From positions 2,136-66,135 of the forward strand of contig JAHBAU020000005.1 of assembly GCA_018499905.2 (NCBI GenBank): a DNA stretch of 64,000 nucleotides. Reading direction: 5' to 3'. The DNA comes from Candidatus Saccharimonadota bacterium (GTDB lineage Bacteria; Patescibacteriota; Saccharimonadia; Saccharimonadales; AQU-01). The position numbers and the translations under genes were made by a program. The notes beneath the pieces were generated by a model, which worked only from the letters and a program-made list of their open reading frames with translations, did no database searches and was not told the DNA's origin. Positions 3,098 through 63,927 of the stretch are shown in pieces; the first letter of the stretch is position 1; each line of letters opens with the position of its first letter.

Positions 3098-3457
3098 ATG
3101 GATAACAAACCAGCCTCGACAGGCACACAACTTTCGAATACGGGCAATCCTCAGGACATTGGTGGCCAAAATATAACTGCACCCAAAACCGACCTGCAAA
3201 CGACGCTGACCCAGAGTAGTAACAGTACAAATTTCAATATCACGAGTGTTGGGGACAGTACTTTTAAGCCTTTTGAGGCATCCACAACTACGTCATCATC
3301 GTTAGGGGCAGAGCTTGACGGTACCGTACCAACGCCTGTTAAAGGGACAAATTTTATGCTGGTAGCCGGTGTTGCCATCATTGTCCTACTTCTTTGTGCC
3401 CTCACGACCTGGGTTTTGTATAAGGATTCCCAAAAAAGACTTATAAAGCGAGCTTAG
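3098..3457 (+). CDS. Small tail-anchored membrane protein, hypothetical
   Basis: 119-aa ORF between the two paralogues. Ser/Thr/Asn-rich N-terminal part with a single C-terminal TM (FMLVAGVAIIVLLLCALTTWVLY). AGAGGGG lies upstream of the ATG. Confidence 0.45.
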   Translation: MDNKPASTGTQLSNTGNPQDIGGQNITAPKTDLQTTLTQSSNSTNFNITSVGDSTFKPFEASTTTSSSLGAELDGTVPTPVKGTNFMLVAGVAIIVLLLCALTTWVLYKDSQKRLIKRA

Positions 3458-3460
3458 GCA

Positions 3461-5353
3461 ATGAAACGAAAACAGTCGATAGAGCAGTTACCAGACTCAC
3501 CAATTCAAGAGCAGCTTGAAGCAAAAGTGCGGGAAATGCTGGGCCCTGACTATACCAGTGCGCCACCGACTCTAGACAAGCCCGCTGAATTGCAGGCCGC
3601 GGAAGATGATCAGCAGGTAGTAGCGCCAGAGACCGACCAACCAGAAGACCGGATAGCTGAAGATATTGAAGAACCCGAAGACGCTGCGACACAGCGTGCA
3701 GTTCACGAAATTGAATTGAGCGAAAGCGATCGAATTCTGGAAGCTGAGGATAAAGAGATTGAAGCGGCATTTGAGCCAGAAAAATTGTCGTTTGGGAATC
3801 GAATAAAACAATTCTTTAGTCGATGGTGGCGCAGCCCGATAAAACGTAATACTACCCTCGCAGTAGTGCTGTTCGGTCTAGCTGCCGTTGCTGTAGTACC
3901 GGCCGGACGATATTTTGTATTAAATACCGTCGGTGTCCGCGCATCGTCGAGTATGACTGTTATTGATGCTGCTAGCCAGCAGCCTATCAAAAACGCCACA
4001 GTGGCAATTATGGGTGTTTCTGGCCAGACCGACAGCGAGGGCCGAGTAACGCTCAGTTCTTTGCGCTTAGGGCCGGCTGATCTGACGGTCAATAAGCGGG
4101 CCTACGCCCAGATCACTAAACGTATTACCGTCGGCTGGGGGAGTAACCCGCTCGACAGCCTGCAACTGGTGGCTTCTGGAGAACAGTTTACGTTTGTTGT
4201 CACCGACTATCTTTCCGGAAAGCCTGTCAGTGATGCCGAAGCTAGTGTTGGCGGCTCAGACGCTAGTGCTGATAACGAAGGACGAATTTTATTGGCTACC
4301 GAACCTGGTGATGATGCTTCAGAAGTGACAATCTCTGCCAAAAATTATCGCAGTGAAAAAGTGAAGCTAGGCGATGATATTAAGGCCGAAGTCTCAGTGA
4401 AGATGGTGCCGGCACGTAAAAGCGTGTTCGTGTCCAAGCGTAATGGCAAATATGATCTGTATAAAATCGATGTTGACGGCCAAAATGAAAAGCTGGTTTT
4501 GGCCGGTAGCGGGGTTGAGCGGTCCGACATGGCGCTCGTCAGCCATCCCACAGATGAAGTTGTCGCCTTTGTTTCCACGCGCGAAAACATCCGAAACTCT
4601 GACGGCTATCTCCTCAGCACGTTGACAGTTGTTGACCTGTCCAATGACTCAACCCAAAAAGCTGCCCAAGCCGAACGAATTGAAGTCTTGGGTTGGTCGG
4701 GATCAAAGCTCTACTATGTTCAAACTGTTGCTGGTGCCAGTGCCGGCAATCCAGAGCGACAAAAAATCGTTAGCTATGATTATAAAGACAGCAAATCGGC
4801 AACTATCACAACCGCAAATTACTTTAACGACCATGTGCTTGTCGGCGACAGTCTGTACTATGCGGCCTCGGCGGCATTTAATCCTGACAAAGCTGGTTTA
4901 TACAAGGTCGGTACATCCGGTTCTGCGCAACAGCTGCAGCCCAAAGAAGTATATGGGATTTACCGGATGGCCTATGACCGGCTATCGTTTGTAACCGATA
5001 ATAACGCGTGGTATGAAACCGTTCTTGGCCAGTCTTCGTCGTCCAAATTAACCGGGGTACCCGCCAATCCAGTTCTCAGAGTCTATACCGATAGTCCTGA
5101 TGGCTCAAAGAGCGTTTGGGTCGACCAACGAGACGGCAAGGGCGTGCTGCTTTCATATAACAAAGCATCCAAAGAGGACACGATTATTCAGAACCTTGGT
5201 GGCTTACGAGGCCCGGTTCGTTGGTTGAGTGACAAAGTACTGGTGTATAGAATTGCCGATGGGTCAGAGATTGCTGACTACGCTTTCAATATCGAAGGCG
5301 GTGAACCAAAGAAAATCCGTGACGTTACTTTGACAAACGGTGCGGGCGACTAG
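3461..5353 (+). CDS. Membrane-anchored surface protein, paralogue of 1245..3056 (CarboxypepD_reg-like plus PD40-like repeats)
   Basis: 630-aa ORF with an acidic N-terminus, then a TM helix, then IDAASQQPIKNATVAI-type repeats. SPDGSKSVWVDQRDGKGVLL is colinear with the upstream paralogue. Confidence 0.6.
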   Translation: MKRKQSIEQLPDSPIQEQLEAKVREMLGPDYTSAPPTLDKPAELQAAEDDQQVVAPETDQPEDRIAEDIEEPEDAATQRAVHEIELSESDRILEAEDKEIEAAFEPEKLSFGNRIKQFFSRWWRSPIKRNTTLAVVLFGLAAVAVVPAGRYFVLNTVGVRASSSMTVIDAASQQPIKNATVAIMGVSGQTDSEGRVTLSSLRLGPADLTVNKRAYAQITKRITVGWGSNPLDSLQLVASGEQFTFVVTDYLSGKPVSDAEASVGGSDASADNEGRILLATEPGDDASEVTISAKNYRSEKVKLGDDIKAEVSVKMVPARKSVFVSKRNGKYDLYKIDVDGQNEKLVLAGSGVERSDMALVSHPTDEVVAFVSTRENIRNSDGYLLSTLTVVDLSNDSTQKAAQAERIEVLGWSGSKLYYVQTVAGASAGNPERQKIVSYDYKDSKSATITTANYFNDHVLVGDSLYYAASAAFNPDKAGLYKVGTSGSAQQLQPKEVYGIYRMAYDRLSFVTDNNAWYETVLGQSSSSKLTGVPANPVLRVYTDSPDGSKSVWVDQRDGKGVLLSYNKASKEDTIIQNLGGLRGPVRWLSDKVLVYRIADGSEIADYAFNIEGGEPKKIRDVTLTNGAGD

Positions 5354-18973: not shown

Positions 18974-19713
18974 TGGCCCTCTTAGTACTGTCGTTTATTG
19001 CCGGTGTGCTGACGGTTGCCGCGCCGTGTATTTTGCCGCTGTTGCCGGTTATTGTTGGTGGCTCACTTTTGAATAGATCACAAGAAGCTCCCGAAAAGCG
19101 TTGGGTAAGGCCGGTGATTATTGCTGGTAGCCTGGCGGTTTCGGTTATGGTTTTTACGCTATTATTAAAGGCAACCACCTCGCTACTCGGCGTGCCGCAA
19201 TCGGCTTGGCAAATACTGTCGGGTATTATCGTGACTGGCCTGGGGCTGTACTACCTTTGGCCAAAAATCTGGGAAACGGTCTCGTTTAAGGGCGGCCTTA
19301 TGATCAAAAGTAATGCTGTGTTGGCTAGAGCCAACCGTGTTAATGGCTGGGCGGGCCCGGCGCTCATTGGTGCATCACTAGGGCCGGTATTCAATAGCTG
19401 TAGCCCGACGTACGCGCTGATTGTGGCGACAATTTTGCCAGTGTCATTTGCCTCCGGGCTCCTGTATCTTATGGCCTACGCGGTTGGCATGAGCCTGACT
19501 TTATTAACGGTCGCATATGCTGGACAGGCAGCGACTGCCAAGTTACGATTTGCGGCTAACCCGGTTGGCTGGTTTAGGCGCAGTATCGGACTCATCTTTA
19601 TTATTGTGGGCCTATCGGTCATCTTTGGATTAGACAAACAATTTCAGACGTATGTACTAGAGCGCGGTTGGTACGACCCAGTAAGCTCTATTGAGCGTCG
19701 CTTGGCAAAGTAG
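18973..19713 (+). CDS. ccdA: Cytochrome c biogenesis/thiol-disulfide transporter CcdA (DsbD TM domain)
   Basis: TAATG overlap with the thioredoxin gene. Conserved APCILPLLP and SCSPTY Cys motifs, six TM helices. Confidence 0.8.
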   Translation: MALLVLSFIAGVLTVAAPCILPLLPVIVGGSLLNRSQEAPEKRWVRPVIIAGSLAVSVMVFTLLLKATTSLLGVPQSAWQILSGIIVTGLGLYYLWPKIWETVSFKGGLMIKSNAVLARANRVNGWAGPALIGASLGPVFNSCSPTYALIVATILPVSFASGLLYLMAYAVGMSLTLLTVAYAGQAATAKLRFAANPVGWFRRSIGLIFIIVGLSVIFGLDKQFQTYVLERGWYDPVSSIERRLAK

Positions 19714-46745: not shown

Positions 46746-46808
46746 GCAGTTATCATATCAAAGAATATGAAGGTGGCTTCTGGCTCAAGATGGTATTTTA
46801 TCTATGCT

Positions 46809-46827
46809 TGGTAGCCATCGATAGAAC
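46809..46827. repeat. Putative attL (core TGGTAGC plus element-side arm CAT-CGATAGAA)
   Basis: Read directly from the sequence. The arm is the exact inverse of 53252-53259. Confidence 0.65.
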
Positions 46828-47033
46828 GACTTGGAACTCAATCAAGGCAGAACTCATTATCATGTGGCAGATAGTATCTGATTATCAGAAGTTATACATC
46901 AAGTAGTCTTAAGCGGCTTTAACAGAACCAGAGGTAGTAACTATAGACATAAGATTGTATTACTGTAAATAATATTGCTTATGGTTTGAAGTACAGTTCT
47001 TTTGCAGTAGTATCAATACAGAGGTAAAAGTTT

Positions 47034-48887
47034 GTGAAACTGAAAGCGTTTAGAGTAAAGAATTTCAAGTCAATCATTGATTCTGGATTGACTCATCTTT
47101 CAGTGGACTACATTACTACGGTTATAGGTCAAAATGAGTCTGGCAAGTCAGCACTTATTGAAGCTCTCGATAGTTATTTTAAGGGAGTTATATTAGAAAA
47201 AGACATAAGACATGATGATGGAGATTTACCGTCTGTTGATTGTGTATATGCAACGAGTGAAGCAGAAATCAGAACGATACTTGATGAGTATCAATTACCA
47301 GAGGCAGTGGTGCAAGCATTACGTGCGAACTCATGGGAGTTTACCTTACAGCGAACATGGGTTACTGATTTAGCTAAAGGTGAACTGAGCCTCATTCTGC
47401 CATCACTAACAGATGATGATTTTACATACTCGGAAAGCGAATCCGAGCAGGAAAAAGAAACTCCAAGTCCTGAGGAACCAGACCTACCACCTGAGCCAAA
47501 GAAAAAACAGCTGACAGTAAAAGCCATGACTGATCTATTATTCGAGAACGTGCCCATCATAATATTTTTTGACAAACAAGAGCACATACTTCCAGCGACC
47601 ATTGACATTAAAAGTCTCAATACTTCAAAATCCGTTAAAGGAAAAGCAGCCGCACTAAACTTTTTAAAGCTTGTCGGTCTTGACGACTTAACTTACTTTA
47701 ACGATCGTAAAAATAGAGCCAAAATACAACACAAAATAGAGAAAGAAGCCATAAAGTTCACAAAAGACTTTCAAGTTTTCTGGCAACAGGAAATAGGTGC
47801 AAGCATCACAGGTTCTCAAAATGTTAAGGGAGAGAAAGTCGAGATAAAATTTGGCGTTGATGCCCATGATGGTGGCGAAGAAGCAGGAACAGGCTCCTAT
47901 CTTTATTTTATTGTAGGAGATGGCAAACAACTTTTGCATCCTGATCAGCGTAGTGATGGCATGCGATGGTACATCTCATTTTATCTACAGCTCAGAGCCT
48001 ATTCTCAAAATGGCGAGAGGCCACAAGTGATAGTCATGGATGAGCCTGGACAGTTCTTACATGCAAGTGCACAAGAGGACTTATTGAAGCTATTCGAAGC
48101 TGAAGCAAATGAAAACGTAAACATCATATACACCACCCACTCTCCGTTTATGGTTGGACAAGGAGATAAAATTAATAGAATCATTGCTGCTCAACGATCA
48201 CCACACAAAAAGAATGACGGATACAGTCATACGGAAATTATGAGTGGTTTTGAGCTCGGTGCTGCTTCAAGAAATACACTATTCCCATTAATGGCTCATA
48301 TGGGTATGAGATTGTCAGATCAGGAAGTTATAAAGCGAGAGAATAACTTAATTACTGAAGAAATATCAGCTACTTACTATATCAAGGCATTCCTACTACT
48401 GAATGGAAAAGACATAGATGTAAATATCATAGCTTCGACTGGTGCTGATAATGTGCCACAGTTATGTTATGAGTTTTTGGGTTGGGGGCTTAAATTCAGC
48501 GTACTACTAGACGGTGATAAAAAGGGAGAAAAAGTACGTAATAATTTAAAGCGCGATTTATTTTTAGATGATGACGAAATAGCCAACAAGAATGTTTATC
48601 GAATGCGTGGTCATAACGGCATCGAGGATATTTTTACCCAAAAGGATTTTAAGAAACATGTCTTAGGCGATGAATCGGTGTCATATACTGGCGATAATTC
48701 AAAATACGTAGATGAGCAAAAACTTCCCAAAGCTGTTCTTGCAGCAATATTCTTGCAGAAAGTTAAGGAAGGTCATATTGCAATCGAGGGAGATGACGGA
48801 CTCATGCCAACTACGAAAACAAATATACAAAAAGTAGTAAACGCTGTAGAAAAGTTAATTTCTAATCAGGCAAGTCGCTCTGAGTAG
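47034..48887 (+). CDS. OLD-family ATP-dependent nuclease (ABC/AAA_15-type ATPase plus C-terminal Toprim)
   Basis: GTG start after GAGGTAAAAG. FRVKNFKSI N-terminus, Walker A GQNESGKS, signature-like SDGMRWYISFYLQL, Walker B VIVMDEPGQFLH, THSPFM. Toprim-like ITEE...VLLDGDKKG...GIEDIF. Confidence 0.75.
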   Translation: MKLKAFRVKNFKSIIDSGLTHLSVDYITTVIGQNESGKSALIEALDSYFKGVILEKDIRHDDGDLPSVDCVYATSEAEIRTILDEYQLPEAVVQALRANSWEFTLQRTWVTDLAKGELSLILPSLTDDDFTYSESESEQEKETPSPEEPDLPPEPKKKQLTVKAMTDLLFENVPIIIFFDKQEHILPATIDIKSLNTSKSVKGKAAALNFLKLVGLDDLTYFNDRKNRAKIQHKIEKEAIKFTKDFQVFWQQEIGASITGSQNVKGEKVEIKFGVDAHDGGEEAGTGSYLYFIVGDGKQLLHPDQRSDGMRWYISFYLQLRAYSQNGERPQVIVMDEPGQFLHASAQEDLLKLFEAEANENVNIIYTTHSPFMVGQGDKINRIIAAQRSPHKKNDGYSHTEIMSGFELGAASRNTLFPLMAHMGMRLSDQEVIKRENNLITEEISATYYIKAFLLLNGKDIDVNIIASTGADNVPQLCYEFLGWGLKFSVLLDGDKKGEKVRNNLKRDLFLDDDEIANKNVYRMRGHNGIEDIFTQKDFKKHVLGDESVSYTGDNSKYVDEQKLPKAVLAAIFLQKVKEGHIAIEGDDGLMPTTKTNIQKVVNAVEKLISNQASRSE

Positions 48888-48965
48888 TTTCTTCTAAAGA
48901 TGACTCTATATCGATAAGTATTTTGAAAAACTCAACTAATGATTTTATATCTGAGTCCGATAAAC

Positions 48966-49391
48966 TCATTGGTTAAATTCCGGCACGATCAAAGTTGGTT
49001 CAGGCACTGGAGATAACTCTACTTGGTTATTCTCGCGCTCAATTCGCAAACGTCCTAATTCTGCTTCTGATAAGGCGAACCATGCCCCAAAGAACAATAA
49101 CCAAGCGATGATAAATAGAATAATTACTTTTAAGATTCGCCACCATAGCTTTTGCTTAGGCTTAGATTGTTTACGTCTTATGTAGTAGTTAGCTAATAAG
49201 ATAGTGATGATAAGTAAAAATAGTCTCGTATACGGAAAGATTGGGTAAAGAAATGTTTGTAGTTGATTCTCTAGAAGTGTAAGTATCGTTTCAAAAACAA
49301 AATTTCCAAAAATAAATAACAGAACCGCACTTGCATAGACTTTGATTTTATTGACTTTGTGTTGAGGCTTTTCTTCTTCTGGCATAGACAC
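48966..49391 (-). CDS. Small 3-TM membrane protein, hypothetical (island cargo)
   Basis: AAAGGAG RBS 7 nt upstream of the ATG. Three hydrophobic helices separated by basic loops (RRKQSKPKQKLWWR). Confidence 0.6.
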   Translation of the reverse strand: MSMPEEEKPQHKVNKIKVYASAVLLFIFGNFVFETILTLLENQLQTFLYPIFPYTRLFLLIITILLANYYIRRKQSKPKQKLWWRILKVIILFIIAWLLFFGAWFALSEAELGRLRIERENNQVELSPVPEPTLIVPEFNQ

Positions 49392-49413
49392 TCCTTTTTA
49401 TTTGGGGTGTCGT

Positions 49414-49443
49414 AAATAAAAAGGACAACCCCTCTAGGTTGTC
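49414..49443 (-). terminator. Terminator-like hairpin between the HEPN-motif gene and the 3-TM gene
   Basis: Minus strand reads GACAACC-TAGAGGG-GTTGTC followed by CTTTTTATTT. It ends about 22 nt upstream of the 49391 start codon. Confidence 0.5.
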
Positions 49444-49573
49444 TACACCAGCACAAGGTTGTACCCTTGCGTTTTTCGAGAGATTGCCCTTTTTGGGTAC
49501 AACCAATCGAAGATTGGCTTATTTACAAGCTTGTACTGATGTAGACCTCTTTATAATAACAGAGGTTGAACTG

Positions 49574-50734
49574 TTATTTAGAGTCTTTTGGACGTTTCTT
49601 CTCAAGCTCTTCTTTTATTTCTTCCATGAGGTCTTTAAGGCTAGGGTGATATCCATCCGGATACATATCGCTAAACATGGGTTCTCTTTCTGTAGTTCGA
49701 GGTATCAATGCCTTTGAGTCGATCTTACCTCCGACTGCCTTTATCATTTCTTTTCTAAATAAATGCTCTGGCAGATCAAGCTCTTCGGGCTTAATAAAAC
49801 CAACTCCTAGGCGAACCTGCTCTTGCTCTAAATCTTTGATAATTTCAAATAAAATATCAACTAAATCACGACACTTCTCTACAGCTTCCTTACTTTCACT
49901 ATACTGAAAGTTAGTTATTGCAAAGCGATGCACTGCGCGGTTTCTTACATCGTACAGTTCGTTTATCCGTTTGAAGAAAAGCACTTTATCGTAGTTAGGA
50001 AAGACAACTTCATCTTCGGCAAGCTTATATATACCACGCTCCGTTATGAATTTACCGCCTTCTTTTTGCTCAAATAATTCTCGGAAATCCGGATCAACTC
50101 TTTTTGTCTTTCTCACATTAATTCTTGTAAGCAATATCGAGTATCTTAACTGTGTGTCTAACAGTGCTACAAGTAGTATAAGTGCTTCCAGATAGTCACG
50201 AGTGTTATCAAGCTCGTCCATAGAGTCACGGAATAGTAGTGTAAGGGACATGAATGCACTCATGAAATTATCAAACGGGTACTGATCGAGGTGGTTCTTG
50301 TAGTCTGCCTGCTTAAAATCATTAAACTTACTTATATTATCTTCAATGAGCTTCTTGAGATATTCTGCATCCTTTTCGAGACCTTTTACAGTGCCTTTAT
50401 CCTTTAAGCCAAAAGAACCAACTGAAACTCTGTAATCTTTCCAGTCATATATACGAAGAAAACCGTTCTCAGACATTGCAAAGTATTCCCAAGTTGTCTT
50501 ATCGTCAACAAAGCGCATGCCGGCTGCTTCCATAATGTCAACGTATGCTACATCAAAAATGAATTCTAGAAAGTGGAAAGCGATTCTTGGATTAACATCA
50601 ACATGCAAAATTCCACTTCCGCCCCAAGGCTTAGGCAGGTCATCAGCTGTTTCCACGAAAGCAAAGCGATCCTGAAGTTGCTTTCGGATTGTCTTTAACT
50701 CTTTGAGTAGTTTTGAACTATCATTGTCACTCAC
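49574..50734 (-). CDS. Uncharacterised 386-aa protein with C-terminal HEPN-type RNxxxH motif (putative RNase effector)
   Basis: GTG start. LYDVRNRAVHRF (RNRAVH encoded at 49928-49945) sits in a helical C-terminal half. The N-terminal ~200 aa have no recognisable domain. Confidence 0.55.
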   Translation of the reverse strand: MSDNDSSKLLKELKTIRKQLQDRFAFVETADDLPKPWGGSGILHVDVNPRIAFHFLEFIFDVAYVDIMEAAGMRFVDDKTTWEYFAMSENGFLRIYDWKDYRVSVGSFGLKDKGTVKGLEKDAEYLKKLIEDNISKFNDFKQADYKNHLDQYPFDNFMSAFMSLTLLFRDSMDELDNTRDYLEALILLVALLDTQLRYSILLTRINVRKTKRVDPDFRELFEQKEGGKFITERGIYKLAEDEVVFPNYDKVLFFKRINELYDVRNRAVHRFAITNFQYSESKEAVEKCRDLVDILFEIIKDLEQEQVRLGVGFIKPEELDLPEHLFRKEMIKAVGGKIDSKALIPRTTEREPMFSDMYPDGYHPSLKDLMEEIKEELEKKRPKDSK

Positions 50735-51029
50735 TACATTAATTTAAACAGCTAACAGTAGTAAAAGTCCATATAACTGGCTTGCTCTCTGCATCGATGT
50801 CCTATAACACCCCCCTGTGTTTTCTGACAACTGTCGAGCGAAGCCGAAGAGCGTTGCACAATGTCGAATATTGTGCGATGACCCAGTTGCACTGTTCATG
50901 TCGCAAAAGAACTTTTGCGATCTTGAGCGCGCTTGCCGATGTGCCCCACCTTCTCTTTTGCTCTTCCGTTTTCTGTACCAAGTGCTCACACAAAATTTTT
51001 TCTAGAATCGAGTGTCTATAATAAAGAGT

Positions 51030-51491
51030 ATGGCAAAGAGTAATAACCGACAGCCAACCCATGAAGAGCTTCTAGCGATGACGTACAAGCAATTATTAGA
51101 GCTAAATCTTAAAGTAGATTTAATGGACAGGAAGCTAGAGAACCTTCAACATGATATTAGTCAGAGTACGTTCGTGCGTAGTGAACTTATTAAACTCAGG
51201 TTTGACCATAAAACAGACGAGCTTTATATCACTGAGTTTTTCAAAATACCATTTGAGGGTAACGAAGCGGTTTTGTTACGAGCAATGTTTAAGCTGTCTA
51301 ATGGTCTACCTAAGAAGTCGGTCAAGTTCTATACGGCTGAATTGGCAGGTTCTTTTAAGAAAGATACAGACGGGCTTAAAACAGCATCTTCAGTACATGG
51401 AACAATAAAAAGAATAGATGCAACCGTAAAGCACAGGACAATGGGCTTGGAAATCTTCAAAATCAAAACTAAAGTTTTCTTTTTTCTGTAA
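51030..51491 (+). CDS. Putative winged-helix DNA-binding protein (island regulator)
   Basis: The C-terminal half NEAVLLRAMFKLSNGLPKKSVKFYTAELAG...SSVHGTIKRIDATVKH resembles an OmpR/CadC-type wHTH. The N-terminus is coiled coil. Confidence 0.4.
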   Translation: MAKSNNRQPTHEELLAMTYKQLLELNLKVDLMDRKLENLQHDISQSTFVRSELIKLRFDHKTDELYITEFFKIPFEGNEAVLLRAMFKLSNGLPKKSVKFYTAELAGSFKKDTDGLKTASSVHGTIKRIDATVKHRTMGLEIFKIKTKVFFFL

Positions 51492-51549
51492 TTTACAGAT
51501 AAGAAATTCACGAAAATTCACATTGTGGCTGATTTGCTTTAATGAGCTA

Positions 51550-51732
51550 ATGAAGCTCCGAAGCGATACGGTCATCTCAATCGATCAAGCGAAAAAATTG
51601 CTTGGCGATGAAGCTTTGTCTATGACCGATGAAGAGATTCAAGATCTCATAGATGACTTTGATGTTATAGCTCAATACACTATCAAAATGGTTCAAGAGT
51701 TTGATAATAATGAAAGTAAACAGATGCAATAA
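51550..51732 (+). CDS. Small acidic protein (60 aa) immediately upstream of the recombinase
   Basis: ATG-initiated ORF (MKLRSDTVISIDQAKKLLGDEALSMTDEEIQDLIDDFD...). Its stop is 8 nt before the recombinase ORF. Confidence 0.4.
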   Translation: MKLRSDTVISIDQAKKLLGDEALSMTDEEIQDLIDDFDVIAQYTIKMVQEFDNNESKQMQ

Positions 51733-51740
51733 ATGATAAA

Positions 51741-53303
51741 ATGGTTCTAAGTATGCAATGTGTAGGTTATGTAAGGGTATCAACCGAAGAACAAGTGCAC
51801 GGCACTAGCCTAGACATGCAACAAAAGGCTTGCTTTGACTTTGCAAAGTCAAACGGCTGGGAACTACCAAAAGAAAATATCTTTCGTGATGAGGGACAAT
51901 CAGCAAAAGCAACCAATAGACCACAGTTACTGGCGATGCTCGAATTTTGTAGGAAGAATAAGGGCAAAATAGATAAGTGCATTGTTTGGAAGCTCGATAG
52001 ATTTGCGCGTAACTCAGATGATCATGTATTGATACGCACGGCTCTAAAAAAGAACGGCGTCAGTTTAGTTTCCGTAACTGAGCCTATTGATCAAAGCCCG
52101 ACTGGAAAGCTCATGGAAACGATGCTCTCAGGCTTCGCAGAGTTCGACAATGACATCAGAACGTTTAGAACTACTGAAGGTATGAAAAAACGCCTAGAGC
52201 AAGGTGGTTGGCCTCATGATGCGCCAATCGGCTATGTGAAGTCCAAGACCTCGCAAGGAATCACAAGTATTTCGCCAGACCCAGACATGGCACCTATTGT
52301 GAAGGAATTTTTAGAAACTTTTGCTACTGGTCAATATACAGTTAAGCAAGCAAAAGACTTAGCTTTTGAAATGGGATTAAAAGGTAAAAAGGGTAATAAG
52401 CGTACATGGCAGACTACAGAGAATATGCTGAAAAACCCAATATATGCCGGCTACATTCAATCTAAATATACAGATTACAAAAGGTTGGCAGGCTTACACC
52501 AAGCACTGATAGCACCAGATATTTTTGAAAAGAATCAGAGAATACTTTCTGGCAAAAACAGAATACAGTTCAAAAACGATGATTCAGAGTACCCACTGCG
52601 TAGAGATTTCTTAAAGTGTGGCTACTGTGAAAAGTTTGTAACAGGTAGTGCTCCTCGTGGAAACGGCGGAAGATACCCTCGCTATGGCTGTATGTACTGT
52701 AAATCATCAAAGATTGGTGGAAAGAAAGTTAGTAAAAGTAGCGAAGAGGTTCACAAGGAATTTAGATACATATTGTCGAGGATTCGATACAACGAAGGAA
52801 GACTAAAACTATTCAAACAAATTGTGCTAACTCGTTGGTGTGATGAGTATGATGACGCTTTAAAATCGGCTCATGAAATTAATCAAGACATCGACAAACT
52901 CAAAGCAGAACGTTCACGTACTATTCGTAAGTTTACTGCTGATCAAATCAGTTATCAGGAGAAAGAATCAGTAGTAAAAGATATAGATACTGAGATTGAG
53001 AACCTAGAGAACAAGAAGCTTGAAGCTGATATCTATGCTAATCAAAAAGAGAAGATCGTTGAAAATGCTATTTTGTTCATGGAAGACCCATCTGAGTTCT
53101 GGAACCGAGCACCTTTACAGATACAGAAACGTGTTCAACGCATCATTTTTCCAGAAGGTTTGAGCTATGACTTCGAAAATGGTTTTGGAACCGTAAAAGT
53201 CAACGAATCTTATCTGTTAATAAACAAAATAGCCGGCGAGCCGGCTATAAATTCTATCGTGGTAGCGGGGCCAGGACTCGAACCTGGGACCTCGTGGTTA
53301 TGA
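51741..53303 (+). CDS. Large serine recombinase/integrase
   Basis: Catalytic GYVRVSTEEQ, resolvase domain, recombinase domain, zinc ribbon CGYCEKFV...YGCMYC, and coiled coil. The last ~14 codons are the complement of the tRNA. Confidence 0.9.
   Translation: MVLSMQCVGYVRVSTEEQVHGTSLDMQQKACFDFAKSNGWELPKENIFRDEGQSAKATNRPQLLAMLEFCRKNKGKIDKCIVWKLDRFARNSDDHVLIRTALKKNGVSLVSVTEPIDQSPTGKLMETMLSGFAEFDNDIRTFRTTEGMKKRLEQGGWPHDAPIGYVKSKTSQGITSISPDPDMAPIVKEFLETFATGQYTVKQAKDLAFEMGLKGKKGNKRTWQTTENMLKNPIYAGYIQSKYTDYKRLAGLHQALIAPDIFEKNQRILSGKNRIQFKNDDSEYPLRRDFLKCGYCEKFVTGSAPRGNGGRYPRYGCMYCKSSKIGGKKVSKSSEEVHKEFRYILSRIRYNEGRLKLFKQIVLTRWCDEYDDALKSAHEINQDIDKLKAERSRTIRKFTADQISYQEKESVVKDIDTEIENLENKKLEADIYANQKEKIVENAILFMEDPSEFWNRAPLQIQKRVQRIIFPEGLSYDFENGFGTVKVNESYLLINKIAGEPAINSIVVAGPGLEPGTSWL
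53252..53266. repeat. Putative attR (element-side arm TTCTATCG plus core TGGTAGC)
   Basis: Read directly from the sequence. The core is the complement of the tRNA 3' terminus GCTACCA. Confidence 0.65.
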
Positions 53304-53334
53304 GCCACGCGAGCTGCCGCTGCTCCACCCCGCG
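53260..53334 (-). tRNA. tRNA(CAU), initiator (fMet)-like, CCA encoded
   Basis: 5' CGCGGGGTGGAGCAGCGGCAGCTCGCGTGGCTCATAACCACGAGGTCCCAGGTTCGAGTCCTGGCCCCGCTACCA. Close to the E. coli tRNA-fMet acceptor and D arm, with a C1/U72 mismatch and an A11:U24 pair. Confidence 0.9.
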
Positions 53335-63653: not shown

Positions 63654-63730
63654 TGGCAGGGTAGCTCAGTTGGTTAGAGCACAGGACTCATAAGCCTGGG
63701 GTCGCGAGTTCAAATCTCGCCCCTGCTACC
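63654..63730 (+). tRNA. tRNA(CAU), elongator type (Met or Ile2), CCA encoded
   Basis: GGCAGGG-TA-GCTC-AGTTGGTTA-GAGC-A-CAGGA-CTCATAA-GCCTG-GGGTC-GCGAG-TTCAAAT-CTCGC-CCCTGCT-ACCA. The 31:39 position is an A/G mismatch. Confidence 0.85.
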
Positions 63731-63733
63731 AAA

Positions 63734-63850: not shown

Positions 63851-63920
63851 GGCAGAACTAGTAGCGCAAGCGGATAGTTATGTCATCTAAGCGTTCGTTC
63901 AAATCTCGCCCCTGCTACCA
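63851..63920 (+). pseudogene. Degenerate tRNA copy sharing the 3' 24-26 nt of tRNA 63654..63730
   Basis: GGCAG...TCAT..AAGC...GTTCAAATCTCGCCCCTGCTACCA. The acceptor and T stems no longer pair and it is 7 nt shorter than the intact gene. Confidence 0.4.
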
Positions 63921-63927
63921 AACAAAG

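Follow-up and report, generated by a model that had tools for sequence, protein, structure and literature searches.

For the insertion of large DNA into genomes, large serine integrases are the principal tools, and their one-way behavior and its reversal by a recombination directionality factor (RDF) are active structural questions. Known serine-integrase elements insert within protein-coding genes and use cores of 2-8 bp. According to PMC11722253 (citing Abe 2021), the extreme C-terminus of the integrase SprA (F532) contacts an RDF helix that is packed between DNA-binding domain 2 (DBD2) and the coiled-coil hinge, and is implicated in directionality. In PhiC31, the extreme C-terminal acidic residues D590-592 contact the RDF gp3. 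These two enzymes are precedents for an extreme C-terminus of a large serine recombinase (LSR) being located at the directionality machinery. A precedent for an integrase that is altered by its own integration comes from the unrelated tyrosine recombinases. The attB sites of phage Mx8 are located at tRNA-Asp genes. Its attP lies in int, and integration gives this gene a new 3' end and altered properties (intP and intX), described as a 'reversible, covalent modification' (PMC6070905, citing Tojo 1996, Magrini 1999). Here we analyzed a stretch of 64,000 nucleotides from a Candidatus Saccharimonadota bacterium (contig JAHBAU020000005.1), referred to as the window. Positions 46809..53266 are a 6.45-kb integrative element, inserted by an LSR at the 3' end of an initiator tRNA gene. 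Its attP lies inside its LSR gene (int). In the reading that we consider probable, the two isoforms of the enzyme differ in function: the form lacking a C-terminal helix excises the element, and the helix serves integration.

The int product (51741..53303) contains the Pfam domains Resolvase (PF00239; residues 8-157, E = 3.5e-36) and Recombinase (PF07508, corresponding to DBD1; residues 181-271, E = 7e-9, above the cut-off). The catalytic residues R12 and S14 of the YxRVS motif are invariant in 42 sequences, as is Q18. The zinc-ribbon cysteines C296, C317 and C320 are likewise invariant; the window protein also has C299 (CGYC...C..C). Judged by these features, int is an LSR gene. Its reading frame reaches 44 nt into the tRNA gene, with codons 507-520 lying over the tRNA 3' half, and ends (...SIVVAGPGLEPGTSWL) at a TGA stop (53301-53303) that is the complement of C34, A35 and U33 in the anticodon region. 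Acceptor stem, T arm and anticodon stem, read in antisense, give residues 510-520 (GPGLEPGTSWL). At the far end of the element, the sequence after the attL core (46814..46906) is in the same codon phase as int and open to a stop. Both forms share residue A509 (GCx); their lengths are 509 + 11 = 520 amino acids (aa) when integrated and 509 + 29 = 538 aa when excised. The excised tail reads A-I-D-R-T-T-W-N-x-I-K-x-E-L... and contains the terminal helix motif W-N-x-I-x-x-E-L. Note that the host base preceding TGGTAGC creates, in the frame of the tail, an ATG or TTG (46808-46816 in the window; also attL of L002, L004 and others; ATG-GTA-GCC = M-V-A), and gene callers therefore predict separate tail peptides of 36-60 aa (P0146, P0148, P0151-P0153).

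A first-pass annotation, made from the letters of the window, had described an int frame that is open up to the junction and ends as the complement of the tRNA 3' half. Translation of the open reading frame (ORF) and the ARAGORN prediction of a tRNA at 53260..53334 bear this out. It had also read the excised frame as running on for 30 codons at attL, which we confirm with the correction that A509 is shared by both forms. Its central proposal, that attP lies inside int and each state encodes a different tail, is now backed by the dyads of attP, the in-frame tails at attL, selection on the tail and a circular contig. Its further suggestion of a built-in switch for directionality or expression may hold, and returns below as part of our proposal.

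We reconstructed attP for six elements by joining the left part of attR to the right part of attL. The best dyad center of all six reconstructions is located between A and G of TGGTA/GC (arms TTCTATCG/CGATAGAA). The predicted junctions are ...TTCTATCGTGGTAGCCATCGATAGAA... for attP and ...ATCTATGCTTGGTAGCGGGGCCAGG... for attB, and the 2-bp crossover is predicted at 53264-53265 and 46813-46814, corresponding to tRNA nt 71-72 and int codons 508/509. The sites fit the LSR pattern, with a 7-bp core, a dyad-symmetric attP and a presumed cleavage position within the core. In the tRNA, the exchange is limited to the final 4-5 nt, which the element replaces by identical bases. No direct repeats longer than 7 bp were found between the island ends, as expected for a serine integrase. 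The tRNA gene is intact and the tRNA-end repeat is present at both flanks of the element, likewise in L002-L007, L012 and L040. The core TGGTAGC directly precedes the tail in L002-L005, and in L006 both ends carry TGGTTGC, in agreement with the tRNA of this locus. A crossover outside the ORF, which had been considered in the first-pass annotation, does not agree with the six dyad centers, all of which lie inside the core and in int. Searches of IMG/VR with exact and degenerate attP patterns gave no matches. A candidate origin of the tail as a displaced tRNA fragment was rejected, since the tail does not resemble a tRNA and ARAGORN makes no prediction at attL.

Within the window, TGGTAGC occurs 15 times (7.3 expected). 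The 7-mer alone is not significant, nor is an open frame of 30 codons rare in AT-rich DNA. It is the comparative evidence that shows the pairing of core and tail to be real. The 15 copies would fit an explanation by chance or faulty annotation, in which repeat and open frame coincide and the element ends elsewhere, but this is refuted by the tails of homologues, the attL tails of relatives, the attP dyads and the circle, and its probability is practically negligible.

A database search returned 1231 Int homologues (E <= 1e-10), the named ones from Saccharibacteria. C-termini were classified for the best 120 of these (44-98% identical). The pattern (L/I/V)V-x-x-x-G(L/I/F)EP-x-T-x-x-L-stop, antisense to the T arm and ending with a stop from the CAT anticodon, was found in 97 of the 120; other tRNA-derived C-termini were found in 14, a truncated or other C-terminus in seven, and a different, non-tRNA tail in two (P0109 and P0111). 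Altogether, 111 of the 120 closest homologues have tRNA-derived tails, and the possibility that homologues stop upstream of residue ~505, raised earlier, is not what the family shows. The int stop lies inside an antisense tRNA-Met(CAT) in all five related loci L002-L006, and also in L007, L012 and L040. A (L/M/V)-V dipeptide, the complement of ACCA-3', is conserved at the junction. Near-identical elements are also present in SRR14479782 and GCA_034286235. The integrated tails are unconserved and follow the sequence of the tRNA: the window integrase ends AGPGLEPGTSWL, and P0001 (L014), which is 98% identical to it, ends AGAGLEPATLWL. Since the tails differ between such close relatives, the integrated tail is host-determined filler. 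Note that the same Saccharibacteria contig of L004 holds a second, distant LSR (24% identity) that also ends in another antisense tRNA-Met(CAT) (~3415-3490); several lineages of the clade can therefore share a host at different CAT tRNAs.

The excised tail behaves differently. Both uninterrupted tails, ...LVGMPLTKWSQVKQELIQMWQITS... in P0111 and ...LVGASRTYWNQIKADLLSMYQITE... in P0109, are homologous to the predicted excised tail of the window element. Using this predicted tail as query, tblastn detected homologous ORFs in all five related elements, each at the end opposite to int, on the int strand and directly after the core. Detached W-N tails are present at the far end of L040 (tRNA-Met, 42% identity) and L027 (tRNA-His, 29% identity). 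Across 28-79% identity the W and the L of the tail are invariant and the N, I and E nearly so, with helical spacing. For 26 alignable codons, the proportion of synonymous differences (pS) was 0.30-0.81 and that of nonsynonymous differences (pN) 0.06-0.27, giving a pN/pS of 0.10-0.56 (about 0.3). This is comparable to int codons 440-505 (pN/pS 0.06-0.39); the int body of integrated copies has a pN/pS of 0.04-0.25. Low pN/pS together with the residue pattern therefore indicates that conservation of the tail acts at the protein level and goes beyond that of a DNA site. Thus, the alignment of homologues proposed in the first-pass annotation finds the excised tail conserved and the integrated tail not.

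We also weighed conservation of the attL sequence as DNA, either as the P' arm of attP or as another cis site, with the tail as a by-product. The P' half-site must take up the first ~25 bp that follow the core, and a further conserved block follows past the tail stop codon. However, conservation covers 26-30 codons, well past an LSR half-site, and the differences are mostly synonymous. Moreover, in relatives of 28-45% identity the motif is seen as protein and not as DNA, and the ORF is unbroken in the circular contig L013. This explanation is very unlikely.

Remains of tails are widespread. A profile search with the C-terminal segment returned only short proteins, recovering attL-side tail ORFs and fragments, and such small ORFs and tail fossils are common (P0146, P0148, P0151-P0153). 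L006 contains an orphan W-N tail (19029-19090, minus strand) after TGGTGG, 3.5 kb from a tRNA-Met ending CCACCA and with no integrase between. In L002, a second tail (MVAIGRATWN...; 2014-2082) is found 435 bp outside the functional attL. These orphan tails look like remnants of earlier insertions. P0121 (L178 119-442) is an internally deleted integrase, in which the N-terminal 33 aa are fused to the last 74 aa and the tail is intact. P0150 (L179 1455-1814) is a DUF5681-like protein whose C-terminus is joined at ...NVV/AIDR... to the family tail, which points to an insertion beside or inside a different mobile element.

The contig that encodes P0109 (L013; 4444 bp) has a 30-bp terminal direct overlap and no tRNA, and its 542-aa int is uninterrupted and includes the tail. 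Circularized to 4414 bp, it contains on the opposite strand a 528-aa ORF that is continuous only over the contig junction. L013 is a circle, or possibly a tandem repeat. It matches the captured circle that had been suggested as a check, carrying a full-length int with the excised tail. In L012 (4110-11431), two different family elements are arranged in tandem at one tRNA-Met. The int located upstream (P0111) continues into the tail belonging to its downstream neighbor, by which it recovers a full C-terminal helix. Such an array implies a recombination of attP with attL or attR; canonical serine integrases avoid hybrid sites of this kind. Most of the integrated elements occur as single copies. 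The circle, the tandem arrays and the 98%-identical int beside a different tRNA sequence are indirect evidence that the family is mobile.

These findings bear on the possibility of a lock as in Mx8, where integration would cripple the integrase by loss of the helix and so stabilize the island, with excision being rare or requiring full-length enzyme in trans from tandem or co-resident copies. Besides the Mx8 precedent of a new 3' end with altered properties, the arrays in which an upstream int regains the helix and the fact that a genome region can hold several elements and tail fossils are in line with such a lock. Yet most integrated copies are single, the family is mobile (captured circle; 98%-identical int by a different tRNA sequence), and the low pN/pS of the int bodies of integrated copies (0.04-0.25) is hard to explain for a non-functional allele. 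We regard the lock as doubtful.

To locate the crossover in the protein, we used an AlphaFold2 model of the relative P0111 (46-sequence alignment; mean predicted local distance difference test, pLDDT, of 83). The model has the LSR architecture, with a long antiparallel helical pair (363-410 and 416-459) as the coiled coil in the zinc-ribbon domain DBD2. Foldseek matched it to the full-length integrase-DNA complexes 9dxd (SPbeta-type), 9iu2 (Bxb1) and 9tep (PhiC31) at E values of 1e-17 to 1e-12. A PDB sequence search with a full-length relative returned resolvase/invertase catalytic domains only. Residues 511-524 form a linker with pLDDT <50, followed by a terminal helix (526-544) with pLDDT ~73. 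In this model, the predicted crossover maps to a disordered linker between the last helix of the zinc-ribbon domain and the conserved C-terminal amphipathic helix.

The linker has a second predicted role. A hairpin on the minus strand (53219-53248) is encoded antisense to the linker codons NKIAGEPAIN and occurs in 10 of 14 elements of the family. It covaries, with 86% of cells paired (33-48% when the partner was slid), 14 cells changed on both sides and three pairs with compensatory changes; 0 of 500 shuffles attained the covariation score. The recurrent but variable linker peptide pattern 'IA....A(I/K)' therefore follows from the hairpin DNA (ATAGC...GCTAT). The element appears to give the tRNA a replacement terminator, which would shield int from antisense transcription and make the linker dual-coded.

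Could the overlap of attP and int be neutral? Genome compaction might have placed attP at the end of int, with the helix as a generic structural or stability part and the tail swap without regulatory effect. Indeed, the elements are compact and of small size, their tails in the integrated state are filler that is not conserved, and C-terminal residues of LSRs are often disordered in solved structures. However, the crossover stays in the linker just 5' of the helix down to ~29% identity and across different tRNA targets, where drift out of the ORF would be expected. The helix has invariant residues and a pN/pS of about 0.3, and the dual coding of the linker with a covarying terminator indicates fine adaptation of the junction. 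Thus, a neutral overlap is unlikely.

We extended the LSR ORFs in all fetched loci and overlaid them with aragorn predictions. Among 171 such ORFs, 46 end in or pass through a tRNA gene, nearly all antisense. Eleven tRNA identities are hit (Met, Ala, Arg, Lys, Asn, His, Asp, Gln, Pro, Leu and Phe), and the ORFs concerned are almost all from metagenomic relatives with 25-42% identity. Of the phage-type LSRs from IMG/VR, three end at tRNA-His; the C-termini of the others are ordinary. Note that the metagenome and IMG/VR scans with the Int alignment used generic catalytic-motif patterns and mostly returned distant LSRs. Relatives that are uninterrupted by a tRNA keep the helix (L017 and L018, ...HWNQIITELKQWQ...; L009 from Caulobacteraceae, ...SWNQIIDELRQF...; L010, ...FLNQITQEIQAF...). 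An exhaustive HMMER search of 1.84 billion cluster representatives (50% identity) gave 998 matches with E <= 1e-30. The best 150 of these include 140 full-length proteins (28-60% identity), at least 89 of which have T-arm-derived tails in the same frame; others keep the W-N helix. The count of 89 is a lower bound from a regular expression for frame 1, as the classes for frames 2 and 3 hold false positives from a conserved GFRT motif. The overlap of int and attP is ancestral to a very large LSR clade with many tRNA targets, mostly in bacteria of the Candidate Phyla Radiation (CPR).

The reading favored here runs as follows. In the circle, int encodes the 538-aa enzyme including the terminal helix. 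Integration shifts the 29 helix codons 6.4 kb away to attL and fuses int to the antisense tRNA, adding 11 filler residues. From a single integrated copy, only the helix-less 520-aa enzyme could then be made. Because single integrated elements are helix-less and yet the family is mobile, we infer that the truncated form must be able to excise the element (attL x attR), with the product of orf69, the gene directly 5' of int, as a possible cofactor. The helix, which is produced only after excision and is under purifying selection, would most likely serve integration by stabilizing an integration-competent state or by blocking re-excision. In this manner, the element's own reaction would reversibly rewrite int and couple the form of the enzyme to the state of integration.

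Several points weigh against this proposal. The assignment of different functions to the two forms comes from logic and conservation, and orf69 could encode an ordinary RDF, making a helix-based switch unnecessary. A full-length enzyme can exist in some integrated states, namely in arrays of the L012 type. L013 is a 45%-identical relative and not the window element, and a tandem repeat would leave the same assembly signature. Finally, exact-protein look-ups with the flanking SDR and aminotransferase for an empty attB gave nothing or an occupied copy (L177), and the boundaries of the element therefore rest on the comparison of attL with attR and on the symmetry of attP.

More tentatively, the helix may be a cis-acting directionality determinant, with full-length Int as a committed integrase and helix-less Int excising alone or together with orf69. 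We consider this possible. If true, the recombinase would determine its direction of reaction through recombination of the gene that encodes it, and a topology-encoded switch, common to hundreds of tRNA-targeting LSR lineages, would replace or complement a separate RDF. The family offers a natural experiment in this respect, as one enzyme occurs both with its C-terminal helix and lacking it, and each of the two forms belongs to a single recombination state. It also bears on the target range of LSRs, as a large and mostly CPR clade uses tRNA genes with fine adaptations. For most members, gene callers report the chimeric integrated protein, and databases are therefore full of integrases whose last 10-25 residues are antisense tRNA. 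Conversely, attP and attB are predictable for enzymes of the clade from the protein tail alone.

Table 1. Positions of the element, its recombination sites and its genes in the window.
Feature	Position	Strand	Description
Integrated element	46816..53259	unstranded	6451 bp core to core; G+C 0.36-0.42, flanks 0.44-0.51
attL common core TGGTAGC	46809..46815	+	predicted central dinucleotide AG 46813-46814; host to the left, element (P' arm) to the right
Detached int 3' end	46814..46906	+	30 codons (A509 + 29 residues, AIDRTTWNSIKAELIIMWQIVSDYQKLYIK); stop TAG 46904-46906; linked in frame to int codon 508 only after excision
Conserved DNA block CTTAAGCGGCTTTAACAGAACC	46908..46929	+	directly 3' of the tail stop
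Cargo AAA_15/AAA_21 ATPase	47034..48887	+	617 aa; best defence-library matches AriA (PARIS), Old, ATPase-Toprim
Putative membrane protein	48966..49391	-	141 aa; kept in most related elements
Cargo protein	49574..50734	-	386 aa; weak HEPN (RiboL-PSP) match, under Pfam cut-off
orf159	51012..51491	+	first gene of the core module orf159-orf69-int; 65-91% identity in L002, L004, L005, L006, L014
orf69	51523..51732	+	small acidic protein; directly 5' of int; in all close relatives
int (LSR gene, integrated state)	51741..53303	+	520 aa; 1-509 element-encoded, 510-520 and stop antisense tRNA
Intrinsic-terminator-like hairpin	53219..53248	-	ATAGCCGG-CTCG-CCGGCTAT followed by a T-run; 11 nt after the tRNA 3' end
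attR common core TGGTAGC	53260..53266	+	complement of the tRNA 3' end GCTACCA; predicted AG 53264-53265 = tRNA nt 71-72
tRNA-Met(CAT)	53260..53334	-	ARAGORN; gene intact; 5' end CGCGGGGTGGAGCAG; C1 x U72 mismatch; A11:U24 pair

The features of the element are listed in Table 1. Related elements have lengths of 5.9-9.1 kb. Their cargo varies and the orf159-orf69-int module is constant; in the window, the island cargo (47034-48887 and 49574-50734) looks defence-related. orf69 is recognizable at 34-41% identity in L040 and L007, where the Int identity is 39-42%, and Pfam and defence-library scans gave no match to known families. By its position and conservation, the orf69 product is a candidate RDF or regulator. 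In the conserved block that follows the tail stop (CTTAAGCGG..TA..GAACC), TAAGCG...TA...GAAC is invariant in six elements. The block may be a promoter for the cargo (-35-like element) or another element signal; judged by its distance to the crossover, it sits beyond the reach of a normal LSR attP. From the C1 x U72 mismatch and A11:U24, we take the target tRNA-Met to be initiator-like. A second tRNA-Met(CAT) in the window (63655-63731, plus strand) carries no LSR element. About 170 bp 3' of it, its last 26 nt are duplicated (GTTCAAATCTCGCCCCTGCTACCAAA; 63897-63922), together with a second copy of the terminator. This duplication resembles the trace left by an insertion, small or decayed, of the long-repeat (tyrosine-integrase) type.

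How does this arrangement compare with known systems? With PhiC31, Bxb1, A118/LI and the SPbeta integrase SprA, the window enzyme shares the order of catalytic, recombinase and zinc-ribbon plus coiled-coil domains, a short core and a dyad-symmetric attP. In those systems, however, attP lies outside int, one protein is made in both states and a separate RDF sets directionality. The tRNA islands of tyrosine integrases, including tycheposons, resemble the element in their insertion at a tRNA 3' end with restoration of the gene, their defence-like cargo and their tandem arrays, but they duplicate tens of tRNA bases, whereas the window element shares only 7 bp with its target. A minority of tycheposons (27 of 937) carry a large serine recombinase, the single indication in the searched papers against a restriction of serine integrases to protein-coding targets; the text searched does not describe an overlap of int with attP or a tail swap for them.

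Integrases of the SSV1 type from archaea are also encoded by an ORF that spans attP, and they too target tRNA genes. Their integration splits int into two non-functional parts. They are tyrosine recombinases; in contrast, the window int keeps its catalytic and DNA-binding domains and loses only the terminal helix. In the integration-dependent immunity of mycobacteriophages BPs and Brujita, attP likewise lies in a phage gene, and integration alters the C-terminus and the behavior of the protein. The effect there is reportedly due to loss of a degradation tag. The remodeled gene in these phages is the repressor, however, and the integrase is a tyrosine recombinase.

The closest likeness is with Mx8, where attP lies within the int ORF and integration replaces the C-terminus of the enzyme. 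The first-pass annotation had called the arrangement non-standard for serine integrases. This stands insofar as it is not textbook, but it must be qualified by the close precedent of intP/intX in a tyrosine integrase. The two enzymes differ in fold and mechanism, and as the window integrase contains only serine-recombinase domains, the analogy is functional. Compared to Mx8, the window LSR uses a 2-bp crossover and a short dyad-symmetric attP, exchanges ~29 residues, and belongs to a whole clade with this arrangement instead of a single phage. Full-text literature searches returned no account of an LSR gene that contains attP or of LSR tails that stem from a tRNA, which is not proof of absence. 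In conclusion, the principle is known from one tyrosine integrase; what appears to be new is its occurrence in a mechanistically unrelated enzyme family, its scale across a clade and its bearing on LSR directionality.

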